DNA from: Candidatus Omnitrophota bacterium
GTDB taxonomy: Bacteria; Omnitrophota; Gorgyraeia; Gygaellales; Profunditerraquicolaceae
NCBI GenBank assembly: GCA_041308845.1
Contig: JBFZAT010000002.1
Span: 566 to 64,565, forward strand
Direction of reading: 5' to 3'
Length of the DNA stretch: 64,000 nucleotides
Positions 33,723 through 59,781 of the stretch are shown here, one piece after another (the stretch's first letter is position 1; the number at the start of each line of letters is the position of its first letter). The notes under the pieces were generated by a model. It saw only the letters and a list, made by a program, of their open reading frames with translations. It was not told where the DNA came from and made no database searches. A program made the translations under genes and the position numbers.

Positions 33723-33737
33723 TATCCGGGAGCGAGA

Positions 33738-34760: not shown

Positions 34761-34793
34761 TTTAAGATAATTTTATTTCAATCAGGAGAGAAG

Positions 34794-35975: not shown

Positions 35976-35978
35976 TAA

Positions 35979-36047: not shown

Positions 36048-36084
36048 AACAGTAATTTTATATAATTATTGATTAGGAGACAAA

Positions 36085-44432: not shown

Positions 44433-44446
44433 ATTAATTTTCCTGC

Positions 44447-44473
44447 CGTATTCTTACATTCAGTAAGAATACG
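44447..44473. promoter_or_regulatory. perfect 11-bp inverted repeat (CGTATTCTTAC-5-GTAAGAATACG), candidate operator or processing hairpin
   Basis: Exact palindrome arms at 44447-44457 and 44463-44473 in the nadX/small-protein intergenic region, upstream of the radical-SAM operon; no U-tract follows. Confidence 0.35.
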
Positions 44474-44555
44474 ATCGGCGGGATTAATTCGGCCAACAGC
44501 TTAATAATTTTATCTTTAAGTTGTGGCCACATTCAGAAAGGGGGTGAGTACAAAG

Positions 44556-44795
44556 ATGGCAGATAAAGTGGTGAAGTTGGGAGTTAAAAGAGAAAAGGGG
44601 TACCTCTATTACATTGACAAGCAGGGCGATGTTTCTTGCGCAAAAATGGCTAGAGGTGCGAAAAAAGGGGGTAGCCCCAAAAAGGTAGCCAAGTGTGGCA
44701 TTAAAAGAAAAGTCGGATACCTTTATTTCTTGGATAAGAAGGGTGATGTTTCCTGCGCCAAGATGAAAAGAGGCGGTAAGAAGAAAAAGAAATAA
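44556..44795 (+). CDS. small highly basic protein built of two tandem ~35-aa repeats (function unknown)
   Basis: Strong RBS (aagggggtga) 8 nt before ATG 44556. Repeat units KLGVKREKGYLYYIDKQGDVSCAKMARGAKKGG and KCGIKRKVGYLYFLDKKGDVSCAKMKRGGKKKK. About 30% Lys/Arg. Confidence 0.5.
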   Translation: MADKVVKLGVKREKGYLYYIDKQGDVSCAKMARGAKKGGSPKKVAKCGIKRKVGYLYFLDKKGDVSCAKMKRGGKKKKK

Positions 44796-44883
44796 GTAAT
44801 ATATATCGACATAGCCCCGCGCTTATTTATTTTTTAAGGTGGGGCTATGTCCGTATATACTCACTTTAACCCGTATTTATCCT

Positions 44884-46344
44884 ATGATCCTCATAAATCC
44901 AAAAACCACTAAATTGGGAATATTTACTAGATACGTCCCATTAAGTGTTCCTATCGGAGTAGGCGCTTTAGCCGGCTATCTTTTACATAAGAATAGAAGC
45001 GTAGAAGTAATCGATGAGCAGATTGAACCATTATCTAAGCCGTTGTTAGAAAATTTGCTTAAGCGCTTAAGCCAGCCCTATATTTTCGGGATATCGGTTT
45101 TGACCGCATCCGCGCAAAGAAGCTATGATCTAGCGGGAATGCTTAAAGACTGGTATCCGGATTCCCGGGTGATTCTGGGTGGAATACACCCCAGTGTGTT
45201 GCCCCAGGAGGCTTTAGAGAAAGAAACGGTTGATTTTGTAATCAGAGGAGAAGGCGAACAGCCACTTCTAGAATTATACGATGCGCTTAAACAACAGAGG
45301 GATTATCGTCAAATTAAAAATTTATCTTATCGGGTTAATGGCAAGATAATCCATAACCCCCTGGCGGAATTTCCTGACTTAAAAGATTTGGGCACGTTTC
45401 CTTACCATTTATTCGAAAAGAATATCGGAAAATATAATTTCGGTTTCATTGCCAGCTCCAGAGGCTGCCCATATGATTGTATATTTTGCAGCCAGCGGAT
45501 TATTTCCGGCAGGAAATTCCGTTATTTTCCAGATGAAGTCGTGATACAAGAGCTGGATCTTTTAATTAATCAATACCGGCAAACCCATATTAATTTTGTA
45601 GACGATAATTTTACAGCGAATAAATCCCGGGTGGCCCGTTTATGTGAACAAATCATTAAAAAAGGTTTTCCGGAGAAAACGAGTTTTGATTTTCAGACCC
45701 GCGCGGATGCGGTAGACGACGCAATATTGGAGTTATTAAAAAGAGCGGGGTTCCGTCTGGTTAACTACGGCTTAGAAACTGCTTCTGAACGGTTGATGTT
45801 GTTATTAAATAAAAAAGAAACGGTCGCCGATAATATTGCGGCGGTTAAGCTGGCTCAAAAACATGGTTTTGGTGTATCGGGCACTTTTATTTTTGGCTTG
45901 CCCACGGAAACCCGGCAAGACCGTTGGCAGGCCTATGCGCTGGCTAAACGCTTGGATTTAGATTATGTGCGGTTTAATAACGCTACTCCTTATCCGGGAA
46001 CTAAGCTTTATGAGTTGGCTCAAGAAGAGGGTAGACTTTTTATCGAAGAGGGCTGGAGTAATCTTAATGCCTGCGCTTCTTTAGTCCAAGATTCACTGAC
46101 TGAATCAAAATTGCCTTATCTTCCCTTGGGGTGCGTGGAAGAAGAATTAAAAAAAGATATTATTAAAGCTAATTTATTTTTTTCGCTTCGGCCGCATAGA
46201 GTTTTTAGATTACTGGCTAAACGCATAGGGCCAGCCGGTTGGTTTTATTTGCCGGCGCGTTGGTATTTTAGCCTCAAAGAATGGCGCTGCCTTTTTAAAT
46301 TAGGATTCAGTTTGGTTAAGTCATTGATTAAGTTATATCTATGA
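44884..46344 (+). CDS. B12-binding domain radical SAM enzyme (class B), #1
   Basis: N-terminal cobalamin-binding-like domain (MILINP..., GGIHPS) followed by the radical SAM core SSRGCPYDCIFC (CxxxCxxC). The GTG at 44839 is an alternative start. Confidence 0.8.
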   Translation: MILINPKTTKLGIFTRYVPLSVPIGVGALAGYLLHKNRSVEVIDEQIEPLSKPLLENLLKRLSQPYIFGISVLTASAQRSYDLAGMLKDWYPDSRVILGGIHPSVLPQEALEKETVDFVIRGEGEQPLLELYDALKQQRDYRQIKNLSYRVNGKIIHNPLAEFPDLKDLGTFPYHLFEKNIGKYNFGFIASSRGCPYDCIFCSQRIISGRKFRYFPDEVVIQELDLLINQYRQTHINFVDDNFTANKSRVARLCEQIIKKGFPEKTSFDFQTRADAVDDAILELLKRAGFRLVNYGLETASERLMLLLNKKETVADNIAAVKLAQKHGFGVSGTFIFGLPTETRQDRWQAYALAKRLDLDYVRFNNATPYPGTKLYELAQEEGRLFIEEGWSNLNACASLVQDSLTESKLPYLPLGCVEEELKKDIIKANLFFSLRPHRVFRLLAKRIGPAGWFYLPARWYFSLKEWRCLFKLGFSLVKSLIKLYL

Positions 46345-48617
46345 AAATTAATAAGAAATTTATCGAAATCTTAAGCGTTATTGCCGTGATCTTTGCAGTA
46401 ATTGTCTTACAGCGGGACATTTGGATCACCGGAAAACGCATGTTTACCGCCGACAGTATTATCTGGTTTGGTGTTTTTGCTTATTTTTCTGATTGTTTAC
46501 AGCAATGGGTTTTGCCTCTCTGGAATCCTTATATGAACTGTGGAGAGGTGTTTTTTTTAAATATCGATGTTCTGCATTTATGGGATCCGGGCACACTGTT
46601 TTTAGTTTTTGCGGGCAAGTTTCTTAAAATTGACACCTTAACTATTTATCATTTTGATTTATTGCTACGCTATTTAATCTTTATTTTAGGCGGATATCTA
46701 TTCTTCAGGCGGCTGGCTAAATATAAAATTAGCGCACTAGTCGCTTTTATAAGTTTAGCGTTTTCGTCCCTGGCTAGTATGTACTTGAAACAACACGGTG
46801 TAATTCTTTGTTTCTACCTTTTACCCTGGATACTACTATGCATCTTTAAACTTTTTGAAACAGAGGATCCAGCTGCTTTAATCGGGTTAGCTTTTTTAGG
46901 GGGAGTTACATTTTATACCGGATATCATGCCATGTATTTAGTTTCATCGGTAGGAACACTTCTGGCGTGTATTTTTTTAACAAAATGGGCTTTATTGCCA
47001 AAACTCTGCAGAATATTAAAACACCGTGTTTGGGTAAGTTTATCGATTTTATTTTTTTTATTAATAGTGGTTAACTTGATTCCGGTTTATCTAAAATACA
47101 ATAGCAGCACAGTCCCTACGGTGCGAATGTTTGAGTGCCCCGGGCCGGCAAATTCTTATTTTTCTGATTTTTTTACTTTGTTGGCTCCGCATTCTTTTTG
47201 GCTGCACTTAATAATTCTATTTTTTGATTCAACCAACCCGATGTCAGAAGTATTTCTTTATGTTGGATTAGTGCCGATTTTCTTGGCGATTGTTGGTTTA
47301 CTTTATTCTCGGCAGAGATATAAGGTTGGTTTTACACTGGCCCTTGGTTTAACTGCGTTATTAATGCTGGGTCCTAACTTTCTTGCTGTCCCGTTATTTT
47401 CTTTACTCATTCCTTATTTTTCGATCATTAGAAACACCCATATCTTCGGCACTTTCTTTATTTTCTGTCTGACTTATTTTGTCTGCCTTGGCCTAGATTA
47501 CTTAATGGAGTTGGCAGAGAGTTCCGCCCTCAGCCGGCATCGAAACCGGTTTATTTTAATTGCGGCGTTGATTGCTTCGGCTGCTTTATTTATTGCGAAT
47601 TATATACTTAAGATTTATGCGATGGGATTACAGTTATCTTCCGATAAATACCAAAGTATATCGGCCGCGATCGGGCAGGATTTAAGCCACATGCTCAGAG
47701 GGGGTCTGTCGAAGTCCTATCACCATATTTGGTTATTTATTATTGCCATATCGGTTATTCTTTATCTGCTGGAAAAGCCTAAAATAAGCTTGAAGATAAA
47801 ATATTTTACGTTAATTGCATTTATTTTAGTCGATTTAGTCCTGTTTAATCAGGCACTATATGATGGGATAACTTCTGGTCCAAGAGTAGATATGTCCAAC
47901 TGGGCCAAAGAAAGTACTGCCTATAGTGATTATCGGGCACCGGTAATGCAGCCTAAATGGCCGTTTTTCGGTTTTGCCCCGGCGCTGCTTAGGAAGTTTA
48001 CGGCTGAAAGTACAAGGATTCCATCTGTAACTACGCATTTTTATGAAATGAAGGATTATTTTAGATTTGTTAATGATGACCAAATTGATGTTTTGGCAAA
48101 GAACGTTTTTATGGGGGTATCTCAGCCGAGGCTTAAGCTGATTAATGCCGGAGTGGTAATGCCGGCGGTACTGCAGGCAGGGGAATTTAAAAAAATAAGC
48201 CAGCCAGCTTTAAATTGTGCGATTTTTATCGAGGAAGAATTACCGGAGAAGTTTCAGAAGTTAAAAATAAGTGTCGAAGAAATTAATCAAGCACGCATTG
48301 TGCAGGGGCAGATTAATGTCCTTAGCTTTGATCCAAACAGCCTCTTATTAGAAGTTGATTCCCCAGAGGATAGTTTTCTCTATTATAGCGATGTATTCGA
48401 TAAAGACTGGAGGGTTTTTATCGACGGGAAGGAAAATAAGGTTTACCGGACTAACTTGGCTTTTAAATCTGTGCTTGTGGAAAAAGGCAGTCACCGGGTG
48501 AGCTGGGTGTACGATCCGGTATTATATAAAATTACATTATATTGTTATTTCGCCGGAATCTTTCTGGCGGTTATCGGGTTTATTTATATATTGTTAAAAC
48601 GCAGAAAAAGACGTTAA
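46341..48617 (+). CDS. large polytopic membrane protein with a YfhO-like C-terminal region (putative envelope glycosyl/lipid transferase)
   Basis: 758 aa with more than 12 TM segments and a soluble C-terminal domain ending with a YfhO-like beta-rich segment (NKVYRTNLAFKSVLVEKGSHRVSWVYDP). ATGA overlap with rSAM #1. Confidence 0.45.
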   Translation: MKINKKFIEILSVIAVIFAVIVLQRDIWITGKRMFTADSIIWFGVFAYFSDCLQQWVLPLWNPYMNCGEVFFLNIDVLHLWDPGTLFLVFAGKFLKIDTLTIYHFDLLLRYLIFILGGYLFFRRLAKYKISALVAFISLAFSSLASMYLKQHGVILCFYLLPWILLCIFKLFETEDPAALIGLAFLGGVTFYTGYHAMYLVSSVGTLLACIFLTKWALLPKLCRILKHRVWVSLSILFFLLIVVNLIPVYLKYNSSTVPTVRMFECPGPANSYFSDFFTLLAPHSFWLHLIILFFDSTNPMSEVFLYVGLVPIFLAIVGLLYSRQRYKVGFTLALGLTALLMLGPNFLAVPLFSLLIPYFSIIRNTHIFGTFFIFCLTYFVCLGLDYLMELAESSALSRHRNRFILIAALIASAALFIANYILKIYAMGLQLSSDKYQSISAAIGQDLSHMLRGGLSKSYHHIWLFIIAISVILYLLEKPKISLKIKYFTLIAFILVDLVLFNQALYDGITSGPRVDMSNWAKESTAYSDYRAPVMQPKWPFFGFAPALLRKFTAESTRIPSVTTHFYEMKDYFRFVNDDQIDVLAKNVFMGVSQPRLKLINAGVVMPAVLQAGEFKKISQPALNCAIFIEEELPEKFQKLKISVEEINQARIVQGQINVLSFDPNSLLLEVDSPEDSFLYYSDVFDKDWRVFIDGKENKVYRTNLAFKSVLVEKGSHRVSWVYDPVLYKITLYCYFAGIFLAVIGFIYILLKRRKRR

Positions 48618-48639
48618 TGATTATTTTACAAGACGTTCG

Positions 48640-50055
48640 ATGAAAATTTGTTTTGTTCAGAAACAAATCTTTCCCTATTTCGGGGTTATGGCGGTTTCCG
48701 CACAGTTAAAGCAATGCGGCCATCAAACCGATATCTTGATTGATGTTTGTGAAAAAGATATCGTCAGGTCATTGCGCCAAGTCCGTCCGGATTTAATCGG
48801 TTTTTCTGTTTTGTCTTCAGAACACGTTTGGTTAGAACGATTAACGTTTGAGTTGAAAAAGTACATGCCTGCAGTTCCTATTGTCGTAGGCGGCGTACAC
48901 GCGATTCTGTATCCGGATGATGTTTTAGCTTTATCCGGAGTAGATTACGTTTGCCGGGGTGAAGGGGAATCTGCTTTTATCCAGTTAACGGATTGTCTTA
49001 CTGCGGGCAAATCACCAAAAAATATCCTTGGTATTAGCTATAAAGATCAGGGTAGGCTCATGCAGCAAGGCATTGCACCATTAACCCAGCAACTAGATGG
49101 GTTTTTCGAAGACCGGCACTTATATTATGAGAGATACCCTAAATTAGGCAAATTAGCACTAAAGGTTTTTATGTCTTCGCGCGGGTGTCCGTATCTTTGT
49201 TCATTTTGCGCTAATAGTCAGATCATGCGGCTTTATCAGGCAAACGGAAATTATGTTCGGAGAAAGTCTCCGCAACATTTTATCGAAGAAATTAAGCGCG
49301 TAGTTGAAGCATACCCCACTAATTCGCTGTTTTTTGCCGATGATCTTTTTGCCCTGGATTTGGGTTGGCTGGAAGAATTCTGCTTTTTGTACAAGCAAAA
49401 AATTAAGCTGCCTTATATTTGTACAGCCCGGATTGATATGATTAAGGAAAAGCACGGACGTTTTCTGGCTGAATCCGGTTGCCACACTGTAAGTTTCGGA
49501 GTCGAGACTGGTAATCAGTTTTTGCGCCAAGTAATTCTCAAGAAAAATATAAGTAACGAGCAGATCTTTGAAAGTGTTGGTATTATTAAAAAAGCCGGGA
49601 TTAAGGTGCAAACTTCAAATATGTTTTGTTTGCCTGATGAAACCGTGGATGATGCGGTTGCTACGCTAAATTTGAATATTGCCATCGGGACAAGCTATAT
49701 GTTTACCACAGTATTTTTGCCTTTTCCTAAAACCGAATTAGCTCAATATTGCATTAACCGGGGTCTACTTAAAGAGAATTACTCTTTTGTGGACATGCCT
49801 AATTCTTTTATTCAGGATTCGGTCTTGCGCTTAGAGCATAAAGATGTTTTATTAAATATCCATAAGATTGCACATCTGTGCGTGCGGTTTCCGCTATTAA
49901 AGCCTTGCCTGATCATGCTGGCTAAAAAAATCAAATTTAAACAGTTGTTTCTGTTTTTTTGGCTAATTGGTACTTTTATCAGGTTTAAAGAAGAACGGCA
50001 ACTGAGCTTGAGCAAGACCATGCGTTATCTTTGGGAGTATCGATGGGGATTGTAA
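48640..50055 (+). CDS. B12-binding domain radical SAM enzyme (class B), #2
   Basis: N-terminal B12-like domain (MKICFVQ..., VGGVHA) followed by SSRGCPYLCSFC. Confidence 0.8.
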   Translation: MKICFVQKQIFPYFGVMAVSAQLKQCGHQTDILIDVCEKDIVRSLRQVRPDLIGFSVLSSEHVWLERLTFELKKYMPAVPIVVGGVHAILYPDDVLALSGVDYVCRGEGESAFIQLTDCLTAGKSPKNILGISYKDQGRLMQQGIAPLTQQLDGFFEDRHLYYERYPKLGKLALKVFMSSRGCPYLCSFCANSQIMRLYQANGNYVRRKSPQHFIEEIKRVVEAYPTNSLFFADDLFALDLGWLEEFCFLYKQKIKLPYICTARIDMIKEKHGRFLAESGCHTVSFGVETGNQFLRQVILKKNISNEQIFESVGIIKKAGIKVQTSNMFCLPDETVDDAVATLNLNIAIGTSYMFTTVFLPFPKTELAQYCINRGLLKENYSFVDMPNSFIQDSVLRLEHKDVLLNIHKIAHLCVRFPLLKPCLIMLAKKIKFKQLFLFFWLIGTFIRFKEERQLSLSKTMRYLWEYRWGL

Positions 50056-51959
50056 AGCAGGCCGCTACTCTGGCCAATAGAGATTTGGATATACTAATGC
50101 AGAAACTAGAGGGGTTTTGCCAGAAATTCGCGCAGCGTTTGCTCTGGGCTTTTATTTCTGTTTACATTCTTATTTTTAGCGGATTATCTTTTTTAAAATA
50201 CCAGTCTTTTAGTTATTATGATTGGGACCTGGCTAGCGATGCAATTGTGTTGTGGAATAGTTTACACGGCGAGTTTTTGTATTATCCTTTTTTGGAACAA
50301 TCCATTTTAGGAGCGCACCTGTATTTAATTTCCATTTTTATTTTGCCCATTTATGCTTTATTTCAAAGCCCATTGACACTTTTATTTTTACAAAGCATAT
50401 TTTTAGGCCTGGGGGCATCTCCCTTATATCTTTTAGCTAGATGTAAGTTGAATGCAACCTTTGCTTTAGCTGTGGTAGTGGTTTATTTATTATACCCTTC
50501 TTTAGGTTTTATTAATTTGTTCGAATCACACTTTGAGATTTATGAAATATTCCTGCTTTTTTTTGCTTTATATTACTTCGAAAAAGAAAAATTTAAAAAA
50601 TTTTTGATCTTTGCCTTGCTGGCTTTGTTTTGCAAAGAGAATGCCAGCCTGGCCGTGTTTGGCTTGGGCATTTATGCTGGTTTCCGTAGGCGTTCTCAAA
50701 AATGGATTTGGACTCCGTTATTAATCGCAGGGGGCTGGTTTATATTATCTTTGAAAGTGATTATTCCGTATTTTGCTAAAGACGCTGTTTTTTACCAGGG
50801 TGGTTTTATGTTCAGTTCTTATTATAAGCATCTGGGGTCTAATTTAGGGGAGATGGTTAAAACAGTCTTTTTGCATCCCCAAACTACGCTGAACTTAGCC
50901 TTTGAGCCCAGAAAATTAATTTATCTTTGCCAACTCTTTTTACCGATTGGGTTTTTAGGGTTATTCAGCCCGTTATCTTTGGTCCCGGCAGTTTTGGTTT
51001 TTGGGCAAAATCTATTATCGGCAGTGCCTACACACGCTTCCATTCGTTATCAGTACGTTGCTTTATTAATCCCCTTTATATTTCTTTCGCTTATCCAGGC
51101 TTTAAACCGGATTTTACGCTGGAAATTAGTTTTTAAGCTGAAAGGAATATTATTGCTTGCTTTGTTCGGATTTGTGACTTCAGCCGGCTTATATTTAGAA
51201 GCTCCACAATTCAACCTGGTCGGACATATTTTTGAGTATTGGCCTAAAGATGAAGCACGAGAAAAAGAAAGATTAATTGCCGCAATACCGAAAAATGCCT
51301 CCGTACTGGCGACTTTTCAGTTTTTGCCTAAATTAGCCAATCGCATCCATCTTTATTCCTTGCATCTTATTGCGGTTGGATACAGGATGTATACTAGTAT
51401 TCGCTACCAGCCTCCTGAGAATCTGGAGTATGCTTTAATCGATTTTAATGAACCGCTGTTGGTTTCCGTTTTTTTGCCCCCGCCGGCTTTAAAAAATATT
51501 CGTACTTTCCTGGAAGCAGATGATTGGAATGTTTACCAGGCTTATAATGATGTGGTTTTATTCAAAAAAGGGTATCCGGATGGACATCGGCTTTGTGAAA
51601 TTATCCAGCATCCTGTTATTAGCCATCCGTTAAACTTTAATTTAGATCAACAAATTGTTTTCTTAGGATATGATATTAATGATAGTATGCTTCAGGAGCG
51701 TTTATTGCATCTTATCTATTATTGGCAAAAAATAAGCAGCCAGCGCCGACCACTAGGATTTTTTATTCAGTTCAGGGATGTCCGCGGTAAGGTTAAGTTT
51801 CAGGCTGAGCATGTTTTCGGCTACCGAGTTTACTTAGGTGAGGAGTGGAGGCCAGGTCAAATTGTTAAGGAACATCATTATATATTAGTGCCCAAGGGTT
51901 TCAAGGCAACTGATTACCAGCTTGAGTTTGGACCGTTTATATTTGAACCTGAATTTTAA
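50043..51959 (+). CDS. polytopic integral membrane protein (GT-C-like; resembles DUF2079 family)
   Basis: About 12 TM segments followed by a ~200-aa soluble C-terminal domain; start overlaps the rSAM #2 stop. Confidence 0.35.
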   Translation: MGIVKQAATLANRDLDILMQKLEGFCQKFAQRLLWAFISVYILIFSGLSFLKYQSFSYYDWDLASDAIVLWNSLHGEFLYYPFLEQSILGAHLYLISIFILPIYALFQSPLTLLFLQSIFLGLGASPLYLLARCKLNATFALAVVVVYLLYPSLGFINLFESHFEIYEIFLLFFALYYFEKEKFKKFLIFALLALFCKENASLAVFGLGIYAGFRRRSQKWIWTPLLIAGGWFILSLKVIIPYFAKDAVFYQGGFMFSSYYKHLGSNLGEMVKTVFLHPQTTLNLAFEPRKLIYLCQLFLPIGFLGLFSPLSLVPAVLVFGQNLLSAVPTHASIRYQYVALLIPFIFLSLIQALNRILRWKLVFKLKGILLLALFGFVTSAGLYLEAPQFNLVGHIFEYWPKDEAREKERLIAAIPKNASVLATFQFLPKLANRIHLYSLHLIAVGYRMYTSIRYQPPENLEYALIDFNEPLLVSVFLPPPALKNIRTFLEADDWNVYQAYNDVVLFKKGYPDGHRLCEIIQHPVISHPLNFNLDQQIVFLGYDINDSMLQERLLHLIYYWQKISSQRRPLGFFIQFRDVRGKVKFQAEHVFGYRVYLGEEWRPGQIVKEHHYILVPKGFKATDYQLEFGPFIFEPEF

Positions 51960-51975
51960 CTTATGGAGCATATGT

Positions 51976-52935
51976 ATGCCGAATAAAATATTAATTATTA
52001 AACTAGGTTACTCGGAAACTTTGGACCAGGAGATCAGCACGACTACCAGTTTAGGGGATGTTTTGCGAACCACCGTGATATTAAATTATTTCAAGAAAGA
52101 TGAAATTACCTGGTTAGTTGATGAGAAGGCTCATCTCTTGCTGGAGGGTAATCCTTTTATAAAACGGATTGTAGTTTTTAGCCAGAAAACGATATTACAA
52201 TTACAGCGTGAACGTTTTGATATAATAATTAACCTAGAGAAGGGGCCGGGTATTTGCGAATTTTCTGATTCGGTAAAAGCTAAAAAAAGATTTGGTTTTT
52301 GGTTTGATCCTAAGAAAGGTTCGGCTCAGGCTTATGACGGAGCGGAACTAGTTTTGAGTTTATGTTTGGACCGGCAGAAGAAAAAAAGAAGCATAAGATT
52401 CTGGCAGGATGCGTTATCTTCCATGATTGCAAAAAAATGGTCGCCCCGGAAAGAATATATACTCGGTTACCGGCCGTCCTCAAAAGTTAAGTATGATATA
52501 GGTTTTAATTGGGTAGTCGGTGATAAATGGCCGAATAAGGCCTGGCCTAAAAAGAATTGGAAAAAGCTCGAAAAACTGTTAAAAAAACAATATAATATTA
52601 GTTGGCAGAGGGGGTTGGGTGATCTCGCAGAATACATGGATTGGATAAATTCCTGTCGATTGATTGTTACCAATGACAGTCTAGGTATGCATTTGGCCAT
52701 TGCTTTAAAGAAAAAGCTAATTGTTCTTTTCGGGCCCAGCTCTTCTAAAGAAGTTTATCTTTACGGCCGGGGGGTAAAACTGGTAGGGAAAGTGCCTTAT
52801 AAATGCTTGCCTTGTCTTAGTCCGGTTTGCATACAACCGGTTAGCTGTATGGAATATATTACTCCTGAGCAAGTTCAAGCGCAAATTATCAGATCTATCC
52901 CCCAGCAGAGGAAATATAATGGAAGATATTTTTAG
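51976..52935 (+). CDS. glycosyltransferase family 9 (heptosyltransferase-like)
   Basis: ILIIKLG...LGD N-terminus and LIVTNDSLGMHLAIALKKKLIVLFGPS, the GT9 C-terminal signature. Confidence 0.7.
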   Translation: MPNKILIIKLGYSETLDQEISTTTSLGDVLRTTVILNYFKKDEITWLVDEKAHLLLEGNPFIKRIVVFSQKTILQLQRERFDIIINLEKGPGICEFSDSVKAKKRFGFWFDPKKGSAQAYDGAELVLSLCLDRQKKKRSIRFWQDALSSMIAKKWSPRKEYILGYRPSSKVKYDIGFNWVVGDKWPNKAWPKKNWKKLEKLLKKQYNISWQRGLGDLAEYMDWINSCRLIVTNDSLGMHLAIALKKKLIVLFGPSSSKEVYLYGRGVKLVGKVPYKCLPCLSPVCIQPVSCMEYITPEQVQAQIIRSIPQQRKYNGRYF

Positions 52936-53983
52936 AATCGATAGTCATAAATTGATGTTTCACATAGATAGAGTTAATGCTTGGTTGCATGGTAAGCAGA
53001 TTTTCCCGTTATATTTAGAGATCGCTCCTTCTGGTAGCTGTAATCATCGGTGTATCTTTTGTGCGGTTGATTATTTAGGGTATGCCCCTTGTTTTCTGGA
53101 TTTGAATTTGCTTAAGAATACGGTAAGTCAAGCAGCAAATTTGGGGGTTAAGAGTATAATGTATGCTGGAGAAGGAGAGCCGCTGTTGCATCCGGATATT
53201 TGCCAGATTGTAAAGCATACTAAAAGCTGCGGGATAGATGTGGCGATCACGACCAATGGTACATTGCTGAATAAAGATTTAGCGCAAAAAATATTGAAAT
53301 ATTTAAGCTGGATTAGAATTAGTTTGAATGCCGGAACCAGCCGGACATATGCCCGTATCCATCGGACCGAAGAAAGAGATTTTTACCGGGCCTTAAAAAA
53401 TTTACAGCAGGCCGTCAGTCTCAAAAAGAAGCATCGGTTGACGGTCAGTATTGGAGTTCAGCTTTTACTTATCCCAGAAAACGTTAAAGAGGTAGTGGTC
53501 CTGGCTAAGAAATTAAAAAAAATAGGTCTTGATTATTTAACCGTTAAACCTTACTCCCAGCACCCTTTGAGTAATTCGCGCGTAGACCTTGGGTTTCAAT
53601 ATGATCATAATGCTATATATAATCAATTATCTCTGTTGGAAGACGATCGCTTTAAGGTCAGTTTCCGCTCTCAGACCATGGAGAGATTAGCCAGAACTAA
53701 AGACTATAAACGGTGTTTAGCTACTCCTTTTTGGTCTTATATTGATGCCCAGGGGCAGGTGTATGCCTGCAGCGCATTTTTAGGCAAGAAAGAGTTTAGC
53801 TTCGGGAATATTAATCAAAATAGCTTTAAAAAGATTATGGTTAGCAGGCGTCGCCGGTCCGTGATCAATAGGATCAGTTCGAAGATCAATGTCAATAAGT
53901 GCCGGCCGGTCTGCCGTTTAGACAAGATCAATAGCTATCTTTGGGAATTACATAATCCTCAACCGCATGTTAATTTTATCTAG
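52919..53983 (+). CDS. radical SAM enzyme with SPASM/twitch-like C-terminal Cys cluster, #3
   Basis: SGSCNHRCIFC CxxxCxxC. Downstream GNINQNSFKKIM and CRPVC resemble the SPASM GN(I/L)xxxS(I/L)xx(I/L)W-plus-Cys pattern. Paralogue of 56803-57906. Confidence 0.7.
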   Translation: MEDIFRIDSHKLMFHIDRVNAWLHGKQIFPLYLEIAPSGSCNHRCIFCAVDYLGYAPCFLDLNLLKNTVSQAANLGVKSIMYAGEGEPLLHPDICQIVKHTKSCGIDVAITTNGTLLNKDLAQKILKYLSWIRISLNAGTSRTYARIHRTEERDFYRALKNLQQAVSLKKKHRLTVSIGVQLLLIPENVKEVVVLAKKLKKIGLDYLTVKPYSQHPLSNSRVDLGFQYDHNAIYNQLSLLEDDRFKVSFRSQTMERLARTKDYKRCLATPFWSYIDAQGQVYACSAFLGKKEFSFGNINQNSFKKIMVSRRRRSVINRISSKINVNKCRPVCRLDKINSYLWELHNPQPHVNFI

Positions 53984-53988
53984 AGGTT

Positions 53989-54975
53989 TTGATGATTGAG
54001 CGCATTAGGGCTGTTGCATTAACCCAGATATATGTGATGATGTTAAGGATCCGGCTTTTTGAAGAGCGCTTAGTTTATTTATATCCGGCTCAGGAAATTA
54101 AAACTCCGGTTCATTTATCCATCGGACAAGAAGCGATTGCCGCTGGTGTTTGCCAGAACTTAACCAAATCAGACTATGTTTTTACTAATCATCGTTGTCA
54201 TGGGCATTGCTTGGCTAAAGGGATGAGTATGTCTGCGATGATGGCGGAGCTTTATGGAAAAAACACGGGATGTTGTAAAGGTAAGGGTGGTTCAATGCAC
54301 TTATCAGATCCGCAGCTAGGGATTTTGGCTACTTCGGCTATTGTCGGGGCTAACCTGCCTATAGCTGTAGGGGCGGCTTTAAGTTTAAAATTGAGAGAGC
54401 GTAAGAATATTTCAGTAGTTTTTTTTGGAGATGGAGCGGTAGATCAGGGAGTTTTTTTCGAAAGCCTTAATTTCGCCGCTTTAAAAAAATTACCGGTTTT
54501 ATTTGTCTGCGAAAATAATTTTTATGCTACTAATTCTTTGCAAAAGGCTAGACAACCCCTGGATAATATTTTTAAGCGGGCAGAAATATTTGGAATAAAG
54601 GGGTGGCGTTGTGCAGGCAATGATGCTCAAGAGGTATATGATCTTGCAAAAAGGCTAATTCAGAAACTAAGAGCTAATTCATCGGGGCCGCATCTATTGG
54701 AGTGTCGCACTTATCGCTGGAAAGCACATGTAGGGCCGGATTGTGATTTTCAGAGCGGTTGCCGTCCGAAGCCGGAGTTAGATGCCTGGATTAGTAATTG
54801 TCCGATTAAAAAGCTCGAAATTTTTCTTATAAAAACAGGTTTATTGACACAAGACAAAATTAGAAAAATCCGGCAGCGGATTAATAGGGAAATTATGCGC
54901 GCAGAATTTTTGGCTAAAAAAAGTCGCTTTCCTTCTGCCGGGGAACTCACCACAGATGTTTATTGGAAGGAATAA
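53989..54975 (+). CDS. TPP-dependent dehydrogenase E1 component alpha subunit (PDH/acetoin-DH E1alpha-like)
   Basis: GQEA...YR.HGH...G, GKGGSMH and FGDGAVDQGVFFESLNFAALKKLPVLFVCENNFYA TPP-binding motifs. Confidence 0.8.
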   Translation: MMIERIRAVALTQIYVMMLRIRLFEERLVYLYPAQEIKTPVHLSIGQEAIAAGVCQNLTKSDYVFTNHRCHGHCLAKGMSMSAMMAELYGKNTGCCKGKGGSMHLSDPQLGILATSAIVGANLPIAVGAALSLKLRERKNISVVFFGDGAVDQGVFFESLNFAALKKLPVLFVCENNFYATNSLQKARQPLDNIFKRAEIFGIKGWRCAGNDAQEVYDLAKRLIQKLRANSSGPHLLECRTYRWKAHVGPDCDFQSGCRPKPELDAWISNCPIKKLEIFLIKTGLLTQDKIRKIRQRINREIMRAEFLAKKSRFPSAGELTTDVYWKE

Positions 54976-54978
54976 TTA

Positions 54979-56031
54979 ATGCCCTGGACTAAGTTAGCGG
55001 TCGATTCCGCTAGTAAAAGGTTTTTGGATTCCAAAAAAAATCTCTGTGGCAGGGTGCTTAGTTACCGTGAGGCTTTAAGAGAAGCTCATTATCAAGCGCT
55101 TAAGCGGGATGCGCGGGTATTTATTATGGGCCAGGGGGTAGATGATCCGGCCGGAGTATTCGGTTCTACTCTGGGATTGCACCAGGAATTTTGCGCTAGG
55201 GTATTTGATACCCCGATTGCCGAGAATGGCCTGACTGGTTTTGCCGTAGGTGCAGCTTTGGCGGGAATGCGGCCGATTTTAGTCCATATGCGTATGGATT
55301 TCTTGCTTTTAACTTTTGATCAGATAATCAATCATGCCTCTAAATTATGCTATATGTCCGGGGGGAGAATACATGTGCCCTTGGTGATCCGGGCGATTAT
55401 CGGCAGGGGCTGGGGATCGGCGGCTCAGCATTCACAAGCCTTACAGGCATTATTTATGCATATTCCGGGCATCAAAGTCGTGCTGCCGGCTTCAGCATAT
55501 GATGCTAAAGGCTTGCTGCTCTCTAGTATCGCTGATGATAACCCTGTAATTTTTATTGAACATCGCTGGCTTTATGATATTCAAGATAGCGTCCCGGCAA
55601 ATGAATATCTTGTTCCAATTGGCAAAGGTTTAATTAAGCGGGGGGGTAAAGACATTACGGTAGTAGCTATTTCTTTAATGGTTAATGAGGCCTTGATTGC
55701 AGCTACGAAGCTTAAGCAAAACGGTATTGAAGCAGAAGTAATTGATCTGCGCAGTTTACGGCCTCTAGATCAAGAAATAATTGTGAACTCTGTAAAAAAA
55801 ACCGGTCGGTTAATCATCGCTGATTTGGGTTGGCGTACAGCCGGGGCAGCCCAGATAATTTTAGGAAATATCCATCATAAGATTAGGCGCTATCTGAAGG
55901 CTGGGGTTGAAATTGTAGCTCTGCCGGATACTCCGACACCTAGCTCTGCATATTTAGAGAAAATATTTTATCCAGGAGCTGCGGATATAATCCGGGCAGC
56001 TAAAAGAATCTATGTGCGCACTAAGCATTGA
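54979..56031 (+). CDS. TPP-dependent dehydrogenase E1 component beta subunit (transketolase-like pyrimidine-binding and C-terminal domains)
   Basis: FDTPIAENGLTGFAVGAALAGMRP and the C-terminal transketolase-C-like fold; 4 nt after the alpha subunit. Confidence 0.8.
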   Translation: MPWTKLAVDSASKRFLDSKKNLCGRVLSYREALREAHYQALKRDARVFIMGQGVDDPAGVFGSTLGLHQEFCARVFDTPIAENGLTGFAVGAALAGMRPILVHMRMDFLLLTFDQIINHASKLCYMSGGRIHVPLVIRAIIGRGWGSAAQHSQALQALFMHIPGIKVVLPASAYDAKGLLLSSIADDNPVIFIEHRWLYDIQDSVPANEYLVPIGKGLIKRGGKDITVVAISLMVNEALIAATKLKQNGIEAEVIDLRSLRPLDQEIIVNSVKKTGRLIIADLGWRTAGAAQIILGNIHHKIRRYLKAGVEIVALPDTPTPSSAYLEKIFYPGAADIIRAAKRIYVRTKH

Positions 56032-56779
56032 TAAATTAAGCGTGATTGTCCCCGCTCTGAATGAAGCGGGTAACATTTGTCAAGCGCTTACGCGTATTTT
56101 TAAGGCACTGGAGTATTTCAAAATCGACGGTGAAGTCATCGTCATTAATGACGGAAGTTTTGACCAGACACAAGTTTTGGTGGAAGAAAAATCCGCTGAG
56201 TACCCCGGCCGGATCAGAATAATTAAACATAGCGCGACTAAAGGCATCGGGGCTTCGTTTTGGGAGGGGGTAGATTTGGCCCAAGGCGCAGCTATCGTAT
56301 TTTTACCGGGAGATAACGAAAATGATCCTCAAGAGGCACTGCGCTATTACAAGCTTCTGGAGCATGTGGATATTATTGTTCCGTTTATTTTTAACCGTAG
56401 AGAGCGGCCGTTATTTAGAAATATGCTGTCTTTGCTCTACCGCTTTATAATTAATACTACTTTTTCGGTGAATTTTAACTATACCAATGGTACGGTGCTC
56501 TATCGTAAATCGGTTCTGCAACAGATAAACCATCGTGCTGACGGTTTTTTCTTCCAAACTGATATTCTGATCAGGTTGGTAAAGAAAGGCTATCTATTTG
56601 CTGAAGTTCCCCACAAAATTGGCACCAGAAAGAAAGGGGTTTCCAAGGCCATTAGTTTTCCTTCGTTATTCCAGGTGGTGGCCGGCTATTTTAAGCTGGT
56701 TCAAGATTATTACCATCGGCAGATGAATCAGGATTTGAATTATTCTAGCGATTCTCAAACTGCCGCCCGAAGTAAATAA
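56012..56779 (+). CDS. glycosyltransferase family 2 (Dpm1/GtrB-like polyprenyl-phosphate sugar transferase type)
   Basis: LSVIVPALNE ... GEVIVINDGSFDQT ... GDNENDPQ (DxD-type) GT-A motifs. Confidence 0.7.
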   Translation: MCALSIDKLSVIVPALNEAGNICQALTRIFKALEYFKIDGEVIVINDGSFDQTQVLVEEKSAEYPGRIRIIKHSATKGIGASFWEGVDLAQGAAIVFLPGDNENDPQEALRYYKLLEHVDIIVPFIFNRRERPLFRNMLSLLYRFIINTTFSVNFNYTNGTVLYRKSVLQQINHRADGFFFQTDILIRLVKKGYLFAEVPHKIGTRKKGVSKAISFPSLFQVVAGYFKLVQDYYHRQMNQDLNYSSDSQTAARSK

Positions 56780-56802
56780 AAATAAACTGCAGGGAGCTAG
56801 GT

Positions 56803-57906
56803 TTGGAAAATTTAATTCTAGATGGACATAAGATTAATTGGCACCCGCAGCGGCTGAAAGCTTGGCTGGCCGGAGAAAGAATTGCTCCGATTACTATTGA
56901 TTGTGCTTTAACCCGGCAGTGTACTTATCGCTGCCGATATTGTTATAGCCGGCTGCAGGTTAATGATGAAAAGAAGATGACCAGGGAAGTCATCTTTCGA
57001 TTTTTAGACGATGTTGCTGAAATCGGAGTTAAGGCAATTAGCTTGGTTAGTGACGGTGAGAGTACCTGTTCACCTTATTTTTACGATGCGATTCTGAAAG
57101 GACATCAAAACGGCTTGGATATGGCAGTAGGGACCAACGGTTATTTATTACAAGCAGAACGCTTAGAAGAGATTCTACCGGCATTAACTTATCTTAGGTT
57201 TAATGTTTCTGCGGCGGAACCTGTGCGTTATGCGCAAATTCATGGTTGTCCGCCGGGATGCTTCGATCAGGTTTGTCAGATTATTCGCCAGGCAGTTAAA
57301 ATTAAAAAAACAAAAAGACTGAAAGTTACCCTGGGATTGCAGATGGTTTTTCTTCCGGATTTTATCGATCAACTCAAGCCGCTAATAAAACTCGGCCAAG
57401 AGTTGGGAGTGGATTATACTATTATTAAACACTGCAGCGATGATGAGCAAGCCAGTCTGGGGGTGGACTATTTAAAATATCATAACTGCATCGGGGCATT
57501 GAAAGCAGCGGAGGCCGCTTCTACCCAGAAGCATCAAATTTACATTAAGTGGTCAAAAATTTTGAGTGATGGTAAAAGGTGCTACAGCCGTTGTTATGGG
57601 CCACCGTTTATTATGCAGCTATCGGGTTCAGGCCTGGTTGCACCATGTGGCATGCTGTTTAACACTAAATTTTCTAAGTTCCATATCGGCAATATCGCTG
57701 AACAATCATTTAAACAGCTTTGGCAGAGCGATCGTTATTGGGAGGTTATGGATTTAATCCGCTCGGAAAATTTTGATGCCCGCTCGATGTGTGGGACCTT
57801 ATGTCTTCAGCATAAAGTTAATGAATTTTTGTGGGAGCTTAAACAAAACAAGACTGCTTTAGTTTTGCCCCAGGGCGATCCGCCCGAGCATCTGAATTTC
57901 ATATGA
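56803..57906 (+). CDS. radical SAM enzyme with SPASM/twitch-like C-terminal Cys cluster, #4
   Basis: LTRQCTYRCRYC and GNIAEQSFKQLWQS plus Cys pairs. Shares the N-terminal W...AWL.G..I.P and the C-terminal LWEL...P.HLNFI with #3. Confidence 0.7.
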   Translation: MENLILDGHKINWHPQRLKAWLAGERIAPITIDCALTRQCTYRCRYCYSRLQVNDEKKMTREVIFRFLDDVAEIGVKAISLVSDGESTCSPYFYDAILKGHQNGLDMAVGTNGYLLQAERLEEILPALTYLRFNVSAAEPVRYAQIHGCPPGCFDQVCQIIRQAVKIKKTKRLKVTLGLQMVFLPDFIDQLKPLIKLGQELGVDYTIIKHCSDDEQASLGVDYLKYHNCIGALKAAEAASTQKHQIYIKWSKILSDGKRCYSRCYGPPFIMQLSGSGLVAPCGMLFNTKFSKFHIGNIAEQSFKQLWQSDRYWEVMDLIRSENFDARSMCGTLCLQHKVNEFLWELKQNKTALVLPQGDPPEHLNFI

Positions 57907-58382
57907 AAATATTAATTTTTCCGGTAGCGATATTCATTCTAGCCGTAGCTGTTCATTTAGTTATTTGGAAGATTAGCTTTCCTTTAAAGCACCGCATTTT
58001 AATTTTAATCAACATATTCGCTTGGGTTTTAGTTTTCGGAATTATTATCTTACCGGATTTTTCACAAAGCCTGGAATTTATTGTTTTGTATTGCTCTTTG
58101 GGTGCGGCTTATCTGCTTTCTTATCCGGCGATAGAAGCAGATAGTCCCTCTTTGGCTATCACTTATAATATTGCCCAGACTGCTTCGGCTGGATTGGTTA
58201 AGGCTGAGCTTAATAAAATGATGGATGATGACATATTAGTTGTTGCTAGAATTAATGATTTGCTTAGTGAAGGCTTAGTGTGTTTGCGCAGTGGTAAATA
58301 TTATTTAACTCCGAGCGGTCTTTTCTTAGCCGGATTATTTTCCGGATTCCGCAAGTTATTGAATTTACCTAAAGGGGGTTAA
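57903..58382 (+). CDS. small integral membrane protein (4 predicted TM)
   Basis: 159 aa, hydrophobic; ATGA overlap with the upstream gene. Confidence 0.5.
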   Translation: MKILIFPVAIFILAVAVHLVIWKISFPLKHRILILINIFAWVLVFGIIILPDFSQSLEFIVLYCSLGAAYLLSYPAIEADSPSLAITYNIAQTASAGLVKAELNKMMDDDILVVARINDLLSEGLVCLRSGKYYLTPSGLFLAGLFSGFRKLLNLPKGG

Positions 58383-58384
58383 TT

Positions 58385-58861
58385 TTGATTTATAATCAAA
58401 GCTTGAATATTTGCCTCCCGTTTATTGCTTTGGCGGTTAATATTCTTTTTCAAATATCCGTTTTCAGGTTTTTTCCTAAAACCGGTTTATTGCGTTCTGT
58501 TTTTTTTGGTTTCACAGTCGGATGCTTGGCGATAATCTTTTTGGGCTTTGGCACCAGGTTAATTTTTAACCTCCTGGTTTATGTTTTGTTGGGGTATTGT
58601 TATTTCCATTTTATAAATATGGGCCAAACTGCCCGGCGGATCCGTATTTTAACCGAACTCAAAGCTTGCCCCGGCGGGCTTTCGGTCCAAGAGATCCTGG
58701 AACGTTATAACTCTGCTGAAATCATTGAGTGCCGTATTAGCCGGCTGGTTGAACACGGGCAAGTATTATTTAAAAACGGAAAGTATTATATAAAAAGTCC
58801 ATTTTTACTGTTGGTGGCTAGAACCTTAATAATTTTAAAACAAGCGTTATTCCCGAGGTGA
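58385..58861 (+). CDS. small integral membrane protein with soluble C-terminal domain
   Basis: TTG start preceded by aaaggggg RBS; N-terminal TM helices; a C-terminal ~70-aa soluble segment. Confidence 0.45.
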   Translation: MIYNQSLNICLPFIALAVNILFQISVFRFFPKTGLLRSVFFGFTVGCLAIIFLGFGTRLIFNLLVYVLLGYCYFHFINMGQTARRIRILTELKACPGGLSVQEILERYNSAEIIECRISRLVEHGQVLFKNGKYYIKSPFLLLVARTLIILKQALFPR

Positions 58862-58865
58862 ACTG

Positions 58866-59717
58866 ATGAGAGCTATAAAATTAGCCAAAGATTGCAATTA
58901 TATTGCAGCTTTCTTAACTTTTGCCTGTAATTTAAAATGCGTTTACTGTATAAATAACTTCGAGCGTAAATTAACTAAACGGAGAATTATCTCCGGTTAC
59001 GATTTTGTTTCCGGGCTAAACCGGATTAATTCCCGGGAAGATTTACCGGTAACCCTGCAGGGTGGCGAGCCGACATTACACCCCGATTTCTATTACATTG
59101 TTAATAATCTAAAACCGGAATTGAACCTTGATTTATTAACTAATTTGCAGTTTAATGTAAGCGAATTTATTAAGCAGATTAATCCCCGGCGGATGCAAAG
59201 AAAAGCTCCTTATGCTTCGATCAGGGTTAGTTATCATCCCGGACAGATGAAACTGGGGCAGTTGATCGCTAAAACACTAAAACTACTGGATGCTAATTTC
59301 AGTGTGGGGGTCTGGGGAGTTTTGCATCCGGCTTACCGGAAGATAATGCTCACCGCTCAGGAAAAATGTCAAAAATTGAACATAGATTTCCGGTTAAAAG
59401 ATTTTTTGGGTGAACACTCCGGAAAGTTATATGGAATTTATAAGTACTCCGGAGCTTGCGATAAAAAATTTAACCGAAAAGTGAAATGCCGTTCTAGCGA
59501 GCTGCTCATTGATAGCCAGGGAGATGTATTCGGCTGCCACGCTGACCTTTATGCCCAGAGGCATAAGCTAGGCAGTATTCTCGACCCCGATTTTAAAACA
59601 GAAAATAAATTCAGAGATTGTGCGCACTTTGGGCACTGTAATCCCTGCGACATTAAAATTAAAACTAACCGGTTCCAACAGTACGGGCATACTTCGGTGG
59701 AAATTAAATCACTATAA
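58866..59717 (+). CDS. radical SAM enzyme with SPASM-like C-terminal Cys-rich domain, #5
   Basis: FACNLKCVYC plus the C-terminal GCHAD...CAHFGHCNPC cysteine cluster. Confidence 0.7.
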   Translation: MRAIKLAKDCNYIAAFLTFACNLKCVYCINNFERKLTKRRIISGYDFVSGLNRINSREDLPVTLQGGEPTLHPDFYYIVNNLKPELNLDLLTNLQFNVSEFIKQINPRRMQRKAPYASIRVSYHPGQMKLGQLIAKTLKLLDANFSVGVWGVLHPAYRKIMLTAQEKCQKLNIDFRLKDFLGEHSGKLYGIYKYSGACDKKFNRKVKCRSSELLIDSQGDVFGCHADLYAQRHKLGSILDPDFKTENKFRDCAHFGHCNPCDIKIKTNRFQQYGHTSVEIKSL

Positions 59718-59781
59718 TTAAGGCCGGCGTATTCAACGGTATTAGCAGAGCCAGGTAGAGACATAGATATCAAAAATCGAC

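Follow-up and report, generated by a model that had tools for sequence, protein, structure and literature searches.

The window analysed here, a 64-kb stretch of DNA (64,000 nucleotides) from an Omnitrophota bacterium, carries on its plus strand two adjacent genes that encode the alpha and beta subunits of a thiamine diphosphate (ThDP)-dependent enzyme of the pyruvate dehydrogenase (PDH) E1 type, located within a cluster of genes for glycosyltransferases, radical S-adenosylmethionine (radical-SAM) enzymes and membrane proteins, with no detectable gene for an E2 or E3 partner. The E1alpha gene (53989..54975) codes for 328 aa when read from the TTG codon at 53989 and for 327 aa from the ATG codon at 53992 that directly follows it, and since the identical database protein (P0001) has 327 aa, 53992 is the likelier and probably the actual translation start. 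In a Pfam scan, this subunit matches PF00676 (E1_dh, E=8e-65) over profile positions 3-296 of 300, and the E1beta subunit (54979..56031, 350 aa) contains a pyrimidine-binding domain (PF02779, Transket_pyr, E=3.3e-36) and a transketolase C-terminal domain (PF02780, Transketolase_C, E=1.2e-29). The listing of open reading frames (ORFs) and these near end-to-end matches bear out the original prediction, made from the sequence alone, that both subunits are full-length, while the spacer between the genes, given there as 4 nt, is in fact 3 nt (54976-54978). E1alpha has the ThDP motif G147-D148-G149 followed 26 residues on by N176-N177, and its H247 corresponds in alignments to the His that is catalytic in E1alpha of human and of G. 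stearothermophilus, while E82 and H151 of E1beta align with E59beta and H128beta of G. stearothermophilus E1p, in which the roles of the active-site residues have been described (PMC2663715). All hallmarks of an E1 heterotetramer are present in the pair, namely E1_dh with GDG-X(25-30)-NN, Transket_pyr/Transketolase_C and the catalytic Glu and His. The pair is not a split-gene transketolase, as E1alpha scores 219 bits to E1_dh versus only 34 bits to the transketolase model NF004559. As compared to the PDH-type equivalog models, E1alpha stays below the cut-off of both TIGR03182 (313.6 bits, cut-off 393.85) and TIGR03181 (181.7, cut-off 411.35).

For comparison of gene context, species-representative genomes were scanned with the peptide patterns CENNFYAT and AE[LF]YG[KR]xTGC, which gave more than 600 matching stretches; the best 80 loci were kept and all of their ORFs were clustered. 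E2 and E3 were searched for in the window and in the fetched loci by tblastn at E<=1e-4, using six E2 and five E3 reference proteins from E. coli aceF/lpd, a Klebsiella acetoin-type operon, a Rhizobium E1-E2-E3 operon, a Rhizobium branched-chain 2-oxoacid dehydrogenase (BCKDH) operon, a Tropicibacter fused E1 with its E2 and a C. difficile operon. No match was obtained in the 64-kb window, as had been predicted for a lipoyl-bearing E2 and for E3, nor in the 10-kb flanks of loci L001-L068. The same tblastn detected E2 in the distant loci L069, L077, L079, L080 and L084-L086 and in the reference loci L089-L093, and since it was found in these seven distant loci, the search was sensitive enough; E2 lies beside E1 only in the most distant loci, whose E1alpha is at most 42% identical to that of the window. 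Furthermore, Pfam revealed no lipoyl, 2-oxoacid_dh or Pyr_redox domain in the ORFs of 1-21107, 37507-57906 and 58866-59717, and the ORFs of 21173-37458 were covered by tblastn and by eye.

The pair is part of a run of 13 plus-strand genes (44839-59717), in which every junction is an overlap or a gap of at most 23 nt. A promoter and terminator scan of 44000-60000 was uninformative, its counts being equal to the shuffled expectation, and the operon call is hence based on gene spacing, which makes the predicted placement of the pair inside an operon reasonable. Directly upstream of E1alpha lies the gene for a radical-SAM enzyme, designated here rS1 (52919..53983, plus strand, 354 aa; PF04055, PF13186), with a CX3CX2C motif and a twitch/partial SPASM C-terminal domain, whose stop lies 5 nt upstream of 53989. 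The end of E1beta is overlapped by 20 nt by the gene for a GT2 glycosyltransferase of the polyprenyl-phosphate sugar synthase type (56012..56779, plus strand, 255 aa; PF00535), and this is followed by rS2, a paralogue of rS1 (56803..57906, plus strand, 367 aa; PF04055, PF13186).

This arrangement is conserved well beyond the window. In a second Omnitrophota metagenome-assembled genome (MAG), whose E1alpha is 72% identical (L001), all 13 genes are colinear, with different genes on both sides and again neither E2 nor E3, and the cluster is therefore a self-contained module without E2/E3 just outside it. Relatives of about 55% identity, from Brocadia, Schekmanbacteria and Gorgyraea, keep the core [GT9] - rS1 - E1alpha - E1beta - GT2 - radical SAM. 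The closest 22 loci all contain the cassette of radical-SAM gene, E1alpha, E1beta, polyprenyl-phosphate-type GT2 and radical-SAM gene, with rS1 immediately 5' of E1alpha, and GT2 overlaps the end of E1beta in 17 of the 17 loci measured. Their hosts belong to Omnitrophota, Nitrospirota, Deltaproteobacteria/Desulfobacterota (including Geobacteraceae and Desulfuromonadaceae), Brocadiaceae (Brocadiales), Nitrospinota, Elusimicrobiota and Schekmanbacteria. A contig of a 'Candidatus Bathyarchaeota' MAG (L004) is 97.5-97.7% identical in DNA to one of a 'Candidatus Brocadia' MAG (L003) along 8.7 kb that include the cassette, and its assignment to the archaea probably results from faulty binning.

In the E1alpha tree (neighbour-joining, 92 sequences, with BCKDH as the root), the 78 E2-less sequences, that of the window included, form one clade (bootstrap 84), which excludes human PDHA1, two acetoin-type sequences, the Rhizobium E1-E2-E3 set, fused alpha-beta proteins and BCKDH. 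When TxnB3 and the Kibdelosporangium and S. rochei homologues were added, all fell inside this clade (81 members, bootstrap 82). In the E1beta tree the E2-less clade has a bootstrap of 100 and holds no named member such as TxnB4, and in neither tree does any of the 13 E2-linked references lie within it. The outcome that the original prediction had named as speaking against it, a firm clustering of the subunits with dehydrogenases of the acetoin or branched-chain type together with E2/E3 synteny, was not seen, and PDH-type sequences likewise fall outside the clade that holds both subunits and includes TxnB3. Within it, the window pair belongs to a distinct radical-SAM-linked subclade of 22 loci. 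TxnB3 itself (P0174, trioxacarcin), recovered by searching with the Kitasatospora member, is 43% identical to the window E1alpha (E=3e-91), and the E2-linked E1alpha references are 27% (BCKDH), 33% (human PDHA1) and 41.7-43% (Rhizobium set) identical to it, the Rhizobium value being nearly that of the E2-less relatives, so that percent identity alone cannot separate the functional classes. The E1-E2-E3 operons of a Rhizobium plasmid (L090) and of a C. difficile plasmid (L093) are located behind a sugar-binding transcriptional regulator and beside genes for sugar transport or glycoside hydrolases.

The E2-less clade is also set apart by residues near the active site and on the surface. Its alpha subunits carry GDGA-x-[DE], where E2-linked sequences have Asn, and YRW[KR]xH[VC]GP right after the catalytic His, a segment that corresponds to the outer active-site loop gating the lipoyl domain in G. 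stearothermophilus E1p (PMC2663715). In the beta subunits, [RK][GS]WG precedes the catalytic His, with R-G-W-G in the window. The clade also lacks the C-terminal aromatic residue of the TP-x-P[Y/F] motif. K307 of the window E1beta aligns with Glu285 of G. stearothermophilus E1beta, which we take to contact the E2 binding domain, an assumption that found no confirmation in the literature checked; this position is Asp or Glu in 11 of the 13 E2-linked sequences and mostly Lys or Arg in the E2-less clade. The radical-SAM-linked subclade adds CENNFYATNS and GCRP, the latter in place of GYR. A four-Cys metal or Fe-S site was also considered for E1alpha, as C239, C258 and C271 are invariant and C252 is present in at least 90% of the closest 20 homologues, but these residues are not general: C239 and C252 vary in L011-L019 (Ala, Phe, Val, Ser, Glu), C271 is found in E2-linked sequences as well, and the site was rejected as a feature of the group at large.

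To avoid circularity, four additional loci (L094-L097) were sampled by homologues of rS1 and not of E1. In L095 and L097, the order is short-chain dehydrogenase/reductase (SDR) - HldE-like - GmhA-like - rS1 - E1alpha - E1beta - GT2 - rS2 - GT-C. In L096, a split transketolase, the N-terminal subunit of which scores 213 bits to a transketolase model, occupies exactly the slot of the E1 pair between rS1 and GT2. L094 has no E1 pair, and at another place of its cassette there is a gene for an acetolactate-synthase-like ThDP enzyme, which with 404 bits stays under the equivalog cut-off, and behind it a radical-SAM gene and GT2; a second acetolactate-synthase-like enzyme lies downstream in L006. 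All three of these ThDP superfamilies have known or proposed sugar-branching members (PMC12247030). The occurrence of ThDP enzymes of three superfamilies in similar cassettes points to ThDP carboligation, rather than an E2-dependent dehydrogenase, as what the cassette would require.

Adjacent alpha and beta genes without E2 and E3 in a sugar or glycan cluster are characteristic of the 'alphaKADH2' group, which installs pyruvate-derived C2 branches on keto-sugars (PMC12247030) and comprises TxnB3/TxnB4, KstD7/D8 of kosinostatin, AviB1/B2 of avilamycin, Pau11/12 of paulomycin, the aldgamycin pair and KbDH-alpha/beta of kibdelomycin. By function, TxnB3/B4 are grouped with AviB1/B2 and with the aldgamycin pair (PMC5659172, PMC12247030), a txnB4 knockout abolishes the two-carbon-branched octose of trioxacarcin (PMC5659172), and KbDH-alpha/beta couples pyruvate to ketones in vitro (reviewed in PMC12247030). 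The window pair shares with this group the clade of TxnB3 as well as GDGA-x-[DE], YRW[KR]xHVGP and the beta motif [RK]GWG. It differs in belonging to the separate 22-locus subclade with CENNFYATNS and GCRP, in its host, which is an uncultivated Gram-negative-type anaerobe and not an actinomycete, and in its operon, which has two radical-SAM enzymes and a polyprenyl-phosphate-type GT2 instead of a dTDP/CDP-hexose dehydratase, epimerase and ketoreductase. The original prediction had read the pair as transferring a two-carbon unit onto a ketosugar in a secondary-metabolite sugar pathway. The enzyme family and the probable chemistry of that reading stand, as far as membership in the E2-less clade with TxnB3 can tell; the assignment to a secondary-metabolite deoxysugar pathway does not, since no nucleoside diphosphate (NDP)-sugar 4,6-dehydratase or nucleotidyltransferase is present and the pair is flanked by two twitch-type radical-SAM genes and GT2 in an envelope-glycan operon. 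The product is probably an envelope glycan and not an antibiotic sugar.

Other known systems resemble the locus in part. YerE and YerE-like ThDP flavoenzymes, which act in the formation of yersiniose, erwiniose and caryophyllose of lipopolysaccharide (LPS), share the proposed addition of an acyl anion from pyruvate or another 2-oxoacid to a keto-sugar that is to become part of LPS, and a member of their acetolactate-synthase-like superfamily is present in the related cassette L094. However, they have a single-chain decarboxylase/acetohydroxyacid synthase fold in place of split E1 alpha/beta subunits, and the sequences are unrelated beyond the ThDP fold (PMC12247030). With the E1 enzymes of PDH, acetoin and branched-chain complexes (G. 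stearothermophilus E1p, human PDHA1/PDHB, AcoAB), the pair agrees in fold and order of domains as well as in the ThDP/Mg motif and the catalytic residues Glu and His, whereas it lacks an E2/E3 partner, lies outside their clades, has an E1alpha below the equivalog cut-offs and is altered in the outer loop and the beta surface residue. Lipid-carrier systems such as ArnC/ArnT, GtrA/GtrB/GtrV and CsbB/YfhO likewise combine a soluble or peripheral GT2 of the DPMS/ArnC/GtrB kind with large polytopic membrane proteins in one operon; in contrast to them, the window operon has no recognisable flippase family, and its E1 pair and radical-SAM enzymes have no counterpart there.

The reading that we favour, with a probability of about 0.58, is that the pair acts as a ThDP carboligase, attaching a C2 unit from pyruvate to the carbonyl of a sugar, which would then be exported on a lipid carrier to the envelope. 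In such a scheme, an alpha2beta2 ThDP enzyme working without E2 and E3 would form a ThDP-bound hydroxyethyl carbanion by decarboxylation of pyruvate or of a comparable small 2-oxo acid, and the C2 unit would be added to the carbonyl carbon of a sugar intermediate, and not to lipoamide, which would leave the sugar with a C-acetyl or hydroxyethyl branch or with an extended chain. The flanking twitch-type enzymes rS1 and rS2 probably make or further process the carbonyl acceptor, the translationally coupled GT2 would load the modified sugar onto polyprenyl phosphate, the YfhO-like and DUF2079 membrane proteins of the operon would pass it on to an acceptor in the envelope beyond the cytoplasmic membrane, and its GT9 and two B12-binding radical-SAM enzymes would add or tailor further residues. 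We infer from gene content and homology pyruvate as the donor, a keto-sugar, possibly heptose-derived, as the acceptor, the roles of rS1 and rS2 and the lipid-carrier route of export.

Several points weigh against this assignment. The trees are of the neighbour-joining type only, with bootstrap, and the compared E1 sets exclude AviB1, AlmDI and KbDH-alpha. Support for the alpha clade (82-84) is moderate and that for the radical-SAM-linked subclade (56-61) is weak. Pfam and NCBIfam scans of 44839-59717 revealed no SDR 4,6-dehydratase, epimerase, ketoreductase or nucleotidyltransferase, so that the customary keto-sugar-forming enzymes are absent from the window cluster and the role of rS1 as a carbonyl generator is speculative. 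E1beta exceeds the cut-off of an NCBIfam PDH-E1beta subfamily model (NF006667, 334.7 vs 321), the only NCBIfam PDH model passed by the pair. In addition, the flanks covered on MAG contigs span 10 kb, so E2 and E3 genes could lie farther off in these genomes.

As an alternative, the pair could be a conventional E1 that belongs to a pyruvate, acetoin or branched-chain 2-oxoacid dehydrogenase complex and has its E2 and E3 encoded elsewhere in the genome. The E1beta score above the NF006667 cut-off speaks for this, the view of the genome is limited to 64 kb, the residues for reductive acylation (alpha H247, beta H151) are intact and the best matches of both subunits in the PDB are PDH E1 subunits. 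Such an assignment is nevertheless extremely improbable, as both subunits lie outside all E2-linked references, E1alpha misses both PDH equivalog cut-offs, and the lipoyl-gating alpha loop and the acidic beta surface residue are replaced in a clade-specific manner. Besides, translational coupling of the pair to a radical-SAM gene and to GT2 is seen in 17-22 loci of several phyla, all of them without E2/E3 nearby, and where the E1 pair is missing (L096, L094) another, E2-independent ThDP enzyme is present, in L096 in the same slot. The last observation bears as well on a different proposal, in which the pair would oxidise pyruvate and pass the electrons to the Fe-S clusters of the neighbouring radical-SAM enzymes, as a dedicated reductant supply resembling pyruvate:ferredoxin oxidoreductase and forming no C-C bond: a transketolase-like enzyme, which is no oxidoreductase, can occupy the slot. 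That the pair strictly accompanies up to five radical-SAM genes, in lineages that are anaerobic, would fit such electron transfer, as would the reduction of artificial acceptors by E1-type enzymes (acetoin:2,6-dichlorophenolindophenol (DCPIP) oxidoreductase, PMC12247030; DCPIP activity of E1p, PMC2663715) and the extra cysteines of the closest 20 homologues (C239, C258 and C271 invariant, C252 at least 90%). However, Pfam finds no Fe-S, flavin or ferredoxin domain in the pair, the cysteines are not kept across the radical-SAM-linked subclade (Ala, Val or Glu at C239/C252 in L012-L014), and sister lineages of the clade are located in sugar clusters without radical-SAM genes, which together make this proposal very improbable.

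A third possibility concerns the donor: a sugar-derived 2-oxo acid or ketose could replace pyruvate, for example in the decarboxylation of a Kdo-like ulosonic acid or in a transketolase-like ketol transfer that remodels an LPS-core heptose. This is unlikely, though GT9, GmhA-like and HldE-like genes do adjoin the pair in L005, L015, L019, L095 and L097, the split transketolase replaces it in L096 and a NeuB-like gene lies downstream in L006 and L011. To our knowledge, no such decarboxylation is known for E1-type enzymes, and Pfam and NCBIfam scans found no Kdo or ulosonic-acid synthase in the window cluster. Characterised members of the clade use pyruvate and appear to be limited to C2 transfer (PMC12247030).

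A carboligase acting on a keto-sugar is also consistent with the settings in which more distant relatives are found. Those of 42-48% identity, among them one on an Azospirillum plasmid, are located in nucleotide-sugar clusters with genes resembling CDP-glucose 4,6-dehydratase, RfbH/DegT, nucleotidyltransferase, GmhA, HldE, HddA, GmhB, methyltransferase and sugar dehydrogenase, and NDP-keto-sugar-forming genes adjoin the cassette itself in L006, L011, L095 and L097. In several relatives, the GmhA-like, HldE-like and GSU2086-family genes upstream of the cassette match the hldE-GSU2086-gmhA triad of Geobacter, which is annotated as heptose/sugar biosynthesis and counted among extracellular-structure genes (PMC5585712), and these genes taken along with GT9 suggest an envelope glycan that contains heptose. 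The HldE-like protein beside the cassette in L005, L015, L019, L095 and L097 has its domains in reversed order as compared to E. coli HldE, with the cytidylyltransferase-like domain N-terminal and the PfkB kinase domain C-terminal, and the GSU2086-family protein is found near the cassette in L005, L015 and L019. As a separate observation, E2-less pairs lie beside CDP-glucose 4,6-dehydratase-like and RfbH/DegT-like genes in L025, L030, L031, L038, L041, L047, L088 and others, often also with genes resembling those for GmhA, HddA, GmhB and a nucleotidyltransferase. The hosts are numerous Gram-negative MAGs, Legionellaceae and Chlamydiia among them, and a plasmid of Azospirillum lipoferum also carries such a pair. 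From these loci, C2-branched (amino)sugars, perhaps made from heptose, would seem to be common among uncharacterised loci for LPS or capsule.

The two radical-SAM enzymes of the cassette are 27% identical to each other (E=1e-47). In rS1, C41/C45/C48 and C266/C284/C328/C332 are invariant, and in rS2, C40/C44/C47 and C264/C282/C330/C334, rS2 having in addition the C-terminus H-x-N-F-I and a mean column identity of 78% among 11 orthologues. The four auxiliary Cys in each would fit one auxiliary cluster, as in small-molecule 'twitch' enzymes. An rS1 profile matches in the PDB BlsE (1e-12), DesII (3e-11), MoaA, viperin and BtrN (1e-5); several of these nearest solved relatives (BlsE, DesII) act on sugar nucleosides or nucleotides, and DesII and BtrN are able to convert a hydroxyl group of a sugar into a ketone. 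The best PDB matches of GT2, which has no predicted transmembrane segment, are dolichol-P-mannose synthase (5mlz, 5.7e-12), ArnC (2.8e-10) and GtrB (5e-9), and together with the YfhO-like and DUF2079 membrane proteins it resembles, as judged from homology, the components of lipid-carrier glycosylation systems.

Three other identities of the cluster were considered and rejected. The number of radical-SAM/SPASM genes had pointed to a cluster for ribosomally synthesised and post-translationally modified peptides, but a conserved precursor-like ORF is lacking, the context is one of glycosyltransferases, and rS1 and rS2 have only four auxiliary Cys with nearest solved relatives acting on small molecules. 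A 90-aa ORF at 44523-44795 has no counterpart among the fetched loci, the upstream gene of L001 being one of 534 aa on the opposite strand. A phosphonate pathway, by way of phosphoenolpyruvate mutase and phosphonopyruvate decarboxylase, was dismissed as no phosphoenolpyruvate mutase is present, and a hopanoid pathway (HpnH/I/J) as the Hpn models are matched only far below their cut-offs.

The remaining operon genes, all on the plus strand, begin with a B12-binding radical-SAM enzyme (44839..46344, 501 aa; PF02310, PF04055), a putative tailoring enzyme that is kept in the colinear L001 cluster and is 26% identical to the second B12-binding radical-SAM enzyme of the operon (48640..50055, 471 aa; PF02310, PF04055), for which all NCBIfam matches, the best being BchE, ApyD and HpnJ, are below cut-off. 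Between them lies the gene for a large membrane protein (46341..48617, 758 aa), weakly YfhO-like in its C-terminal part only (PF09586, E=5.6e-8), a putative GT-C-type periplasmic glycosyltransferase that is kept in 5 loci. These are followed by a polytopic DUF2079 membrane protein (50031..51959, 642 aa; PF09852, E=2.3e-58), a putative GT-C-like transferase kept in 6 loci, and by a glycosyltransferase of the heptosyltransferase family GT9 (51922..52935, 337 aa; PF01075, E=8.3e-15), which remains under the cut-offs of the heptosyltransferase I/II/III models, has 3tov and 1psw (ADP-heptose:LPS heptosyltransferase II) as best PDB matches and belongs to a family found in 15 related loci. Downstream of rS2, two genes encode small membrane proteins, tmA (57903..58382, 159 aa, with hydrophobic segments at 3-21, 32-50 and 59-77 and a soluble C-terminal part) and its distant paralogue tmB (58385..58861, 158 aa, 27% identity over 66 residues), which are kept in 9 and 7 loci, respectively. 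Both start with three hydrophobic segments and end in a soluble part of some 60 residues, and they may serve as flippase or regulator; neither has an NCBIfam match, and their L001 orthologues are without a precomputed Pfam entry. The last gene of the operon encodes a short radical-SAM protein (58866..59717, 283 aa; PF04055, E=2.2e-7) kept in 14 loci, and uvrA starts after a gap of 64 nt, while upstream the operon is flanked by housekeeping genes of lysine, folate and pantothenate metabolism.

The window has 59 ORFs of 120 aa or longer, and 56 of them lie on the plus strand, the three minus-strand ORFs (36600-37010, 43973-44428, 49201-49611) each being inside a plus-strand ORF. The GC skew is positive in all 2-kb bins, so that a single replichore-aligned, co-directional gene array extends over the entire window. 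A full-length phosphoketolase at 2955-5342 (XFP N, central and C domains, E down to 1e-179) is a ThDP enzyme of central carbon metabolism unrelated to the cluster. A membrane protein with a C-terminal tetratricopeptide repeat (TPR) array encoded at 7538-9409 is 33% identical (E=4e-94) to a family member in L007, and genes of this family directly follow the cluster in L001 (15714-17645), L007 and L008, so that in the window genome a GT-C/TPR partner may be encoded 35 kb from the cluster.

As a wider and more tentative proposal, which is possible but doubtful, rS1 - E1alpha - E1beta - GT2 - rS2 might represent an undescribed pathway, in which a radical-SAM enzyme would create a carbonyl (or radical) that is captured by the ThDP enzyme, so that radical-SAM chemistry and ThDP carboligation would yield a C-branched or chain-extended higher sugar, possibly from heptose and without the classical NDP-sugar dehydratase route, delivered via polyprenyl phosphate to the envelope of Omnitrophota, Nitrospirota, Desulfobacterota, Brocadiales and Elusimicrobiota. 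Literature searches on the cassette (Omnitrophota, radical SAM and heptosyltransferase; radical SAM with ThDP and nucleotide sugar) returned nothing relevant, a check of the literature for E1 genes in the LPS region of Coxiella likewise gave no result in the papers searched, and the pairing of an E2-less E1 pair with radical-SAM enzymes has not been described before.

So far, E2-less sugar-branching E1 pairs are mainly known from about 120 gene clusters of the alphaKADH2 type (PMC12247030), and the characterised ones all come from actinomycete antibiotic clusters, with one enzyme assayed in vitro and no structure. The E2-less clade is widespread among species-representative genomes, with its more than 600 matching stretches, and many Gram-negative and candidate phyla have it in envelope-glycan loci as well. 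One subclade has become a constant part of a cassette that also encodes two radical-SAM enzymes and a lipid-carrier glycosyltransferase. For annotation, this means that metabolic reconstructions of genomes of this kind should not take these genes as a sign of a pyruvate dehydrogenase complex. If the carboligase reading is true, the cassette would provide a new ThDP/radical-SAM enzyme pair for tertiary-alcohol biocatalysis, and uncultivated anaerobes such as Omnitrophota would decorate their surface with an unusual C-branched or higher-carbon sugar.

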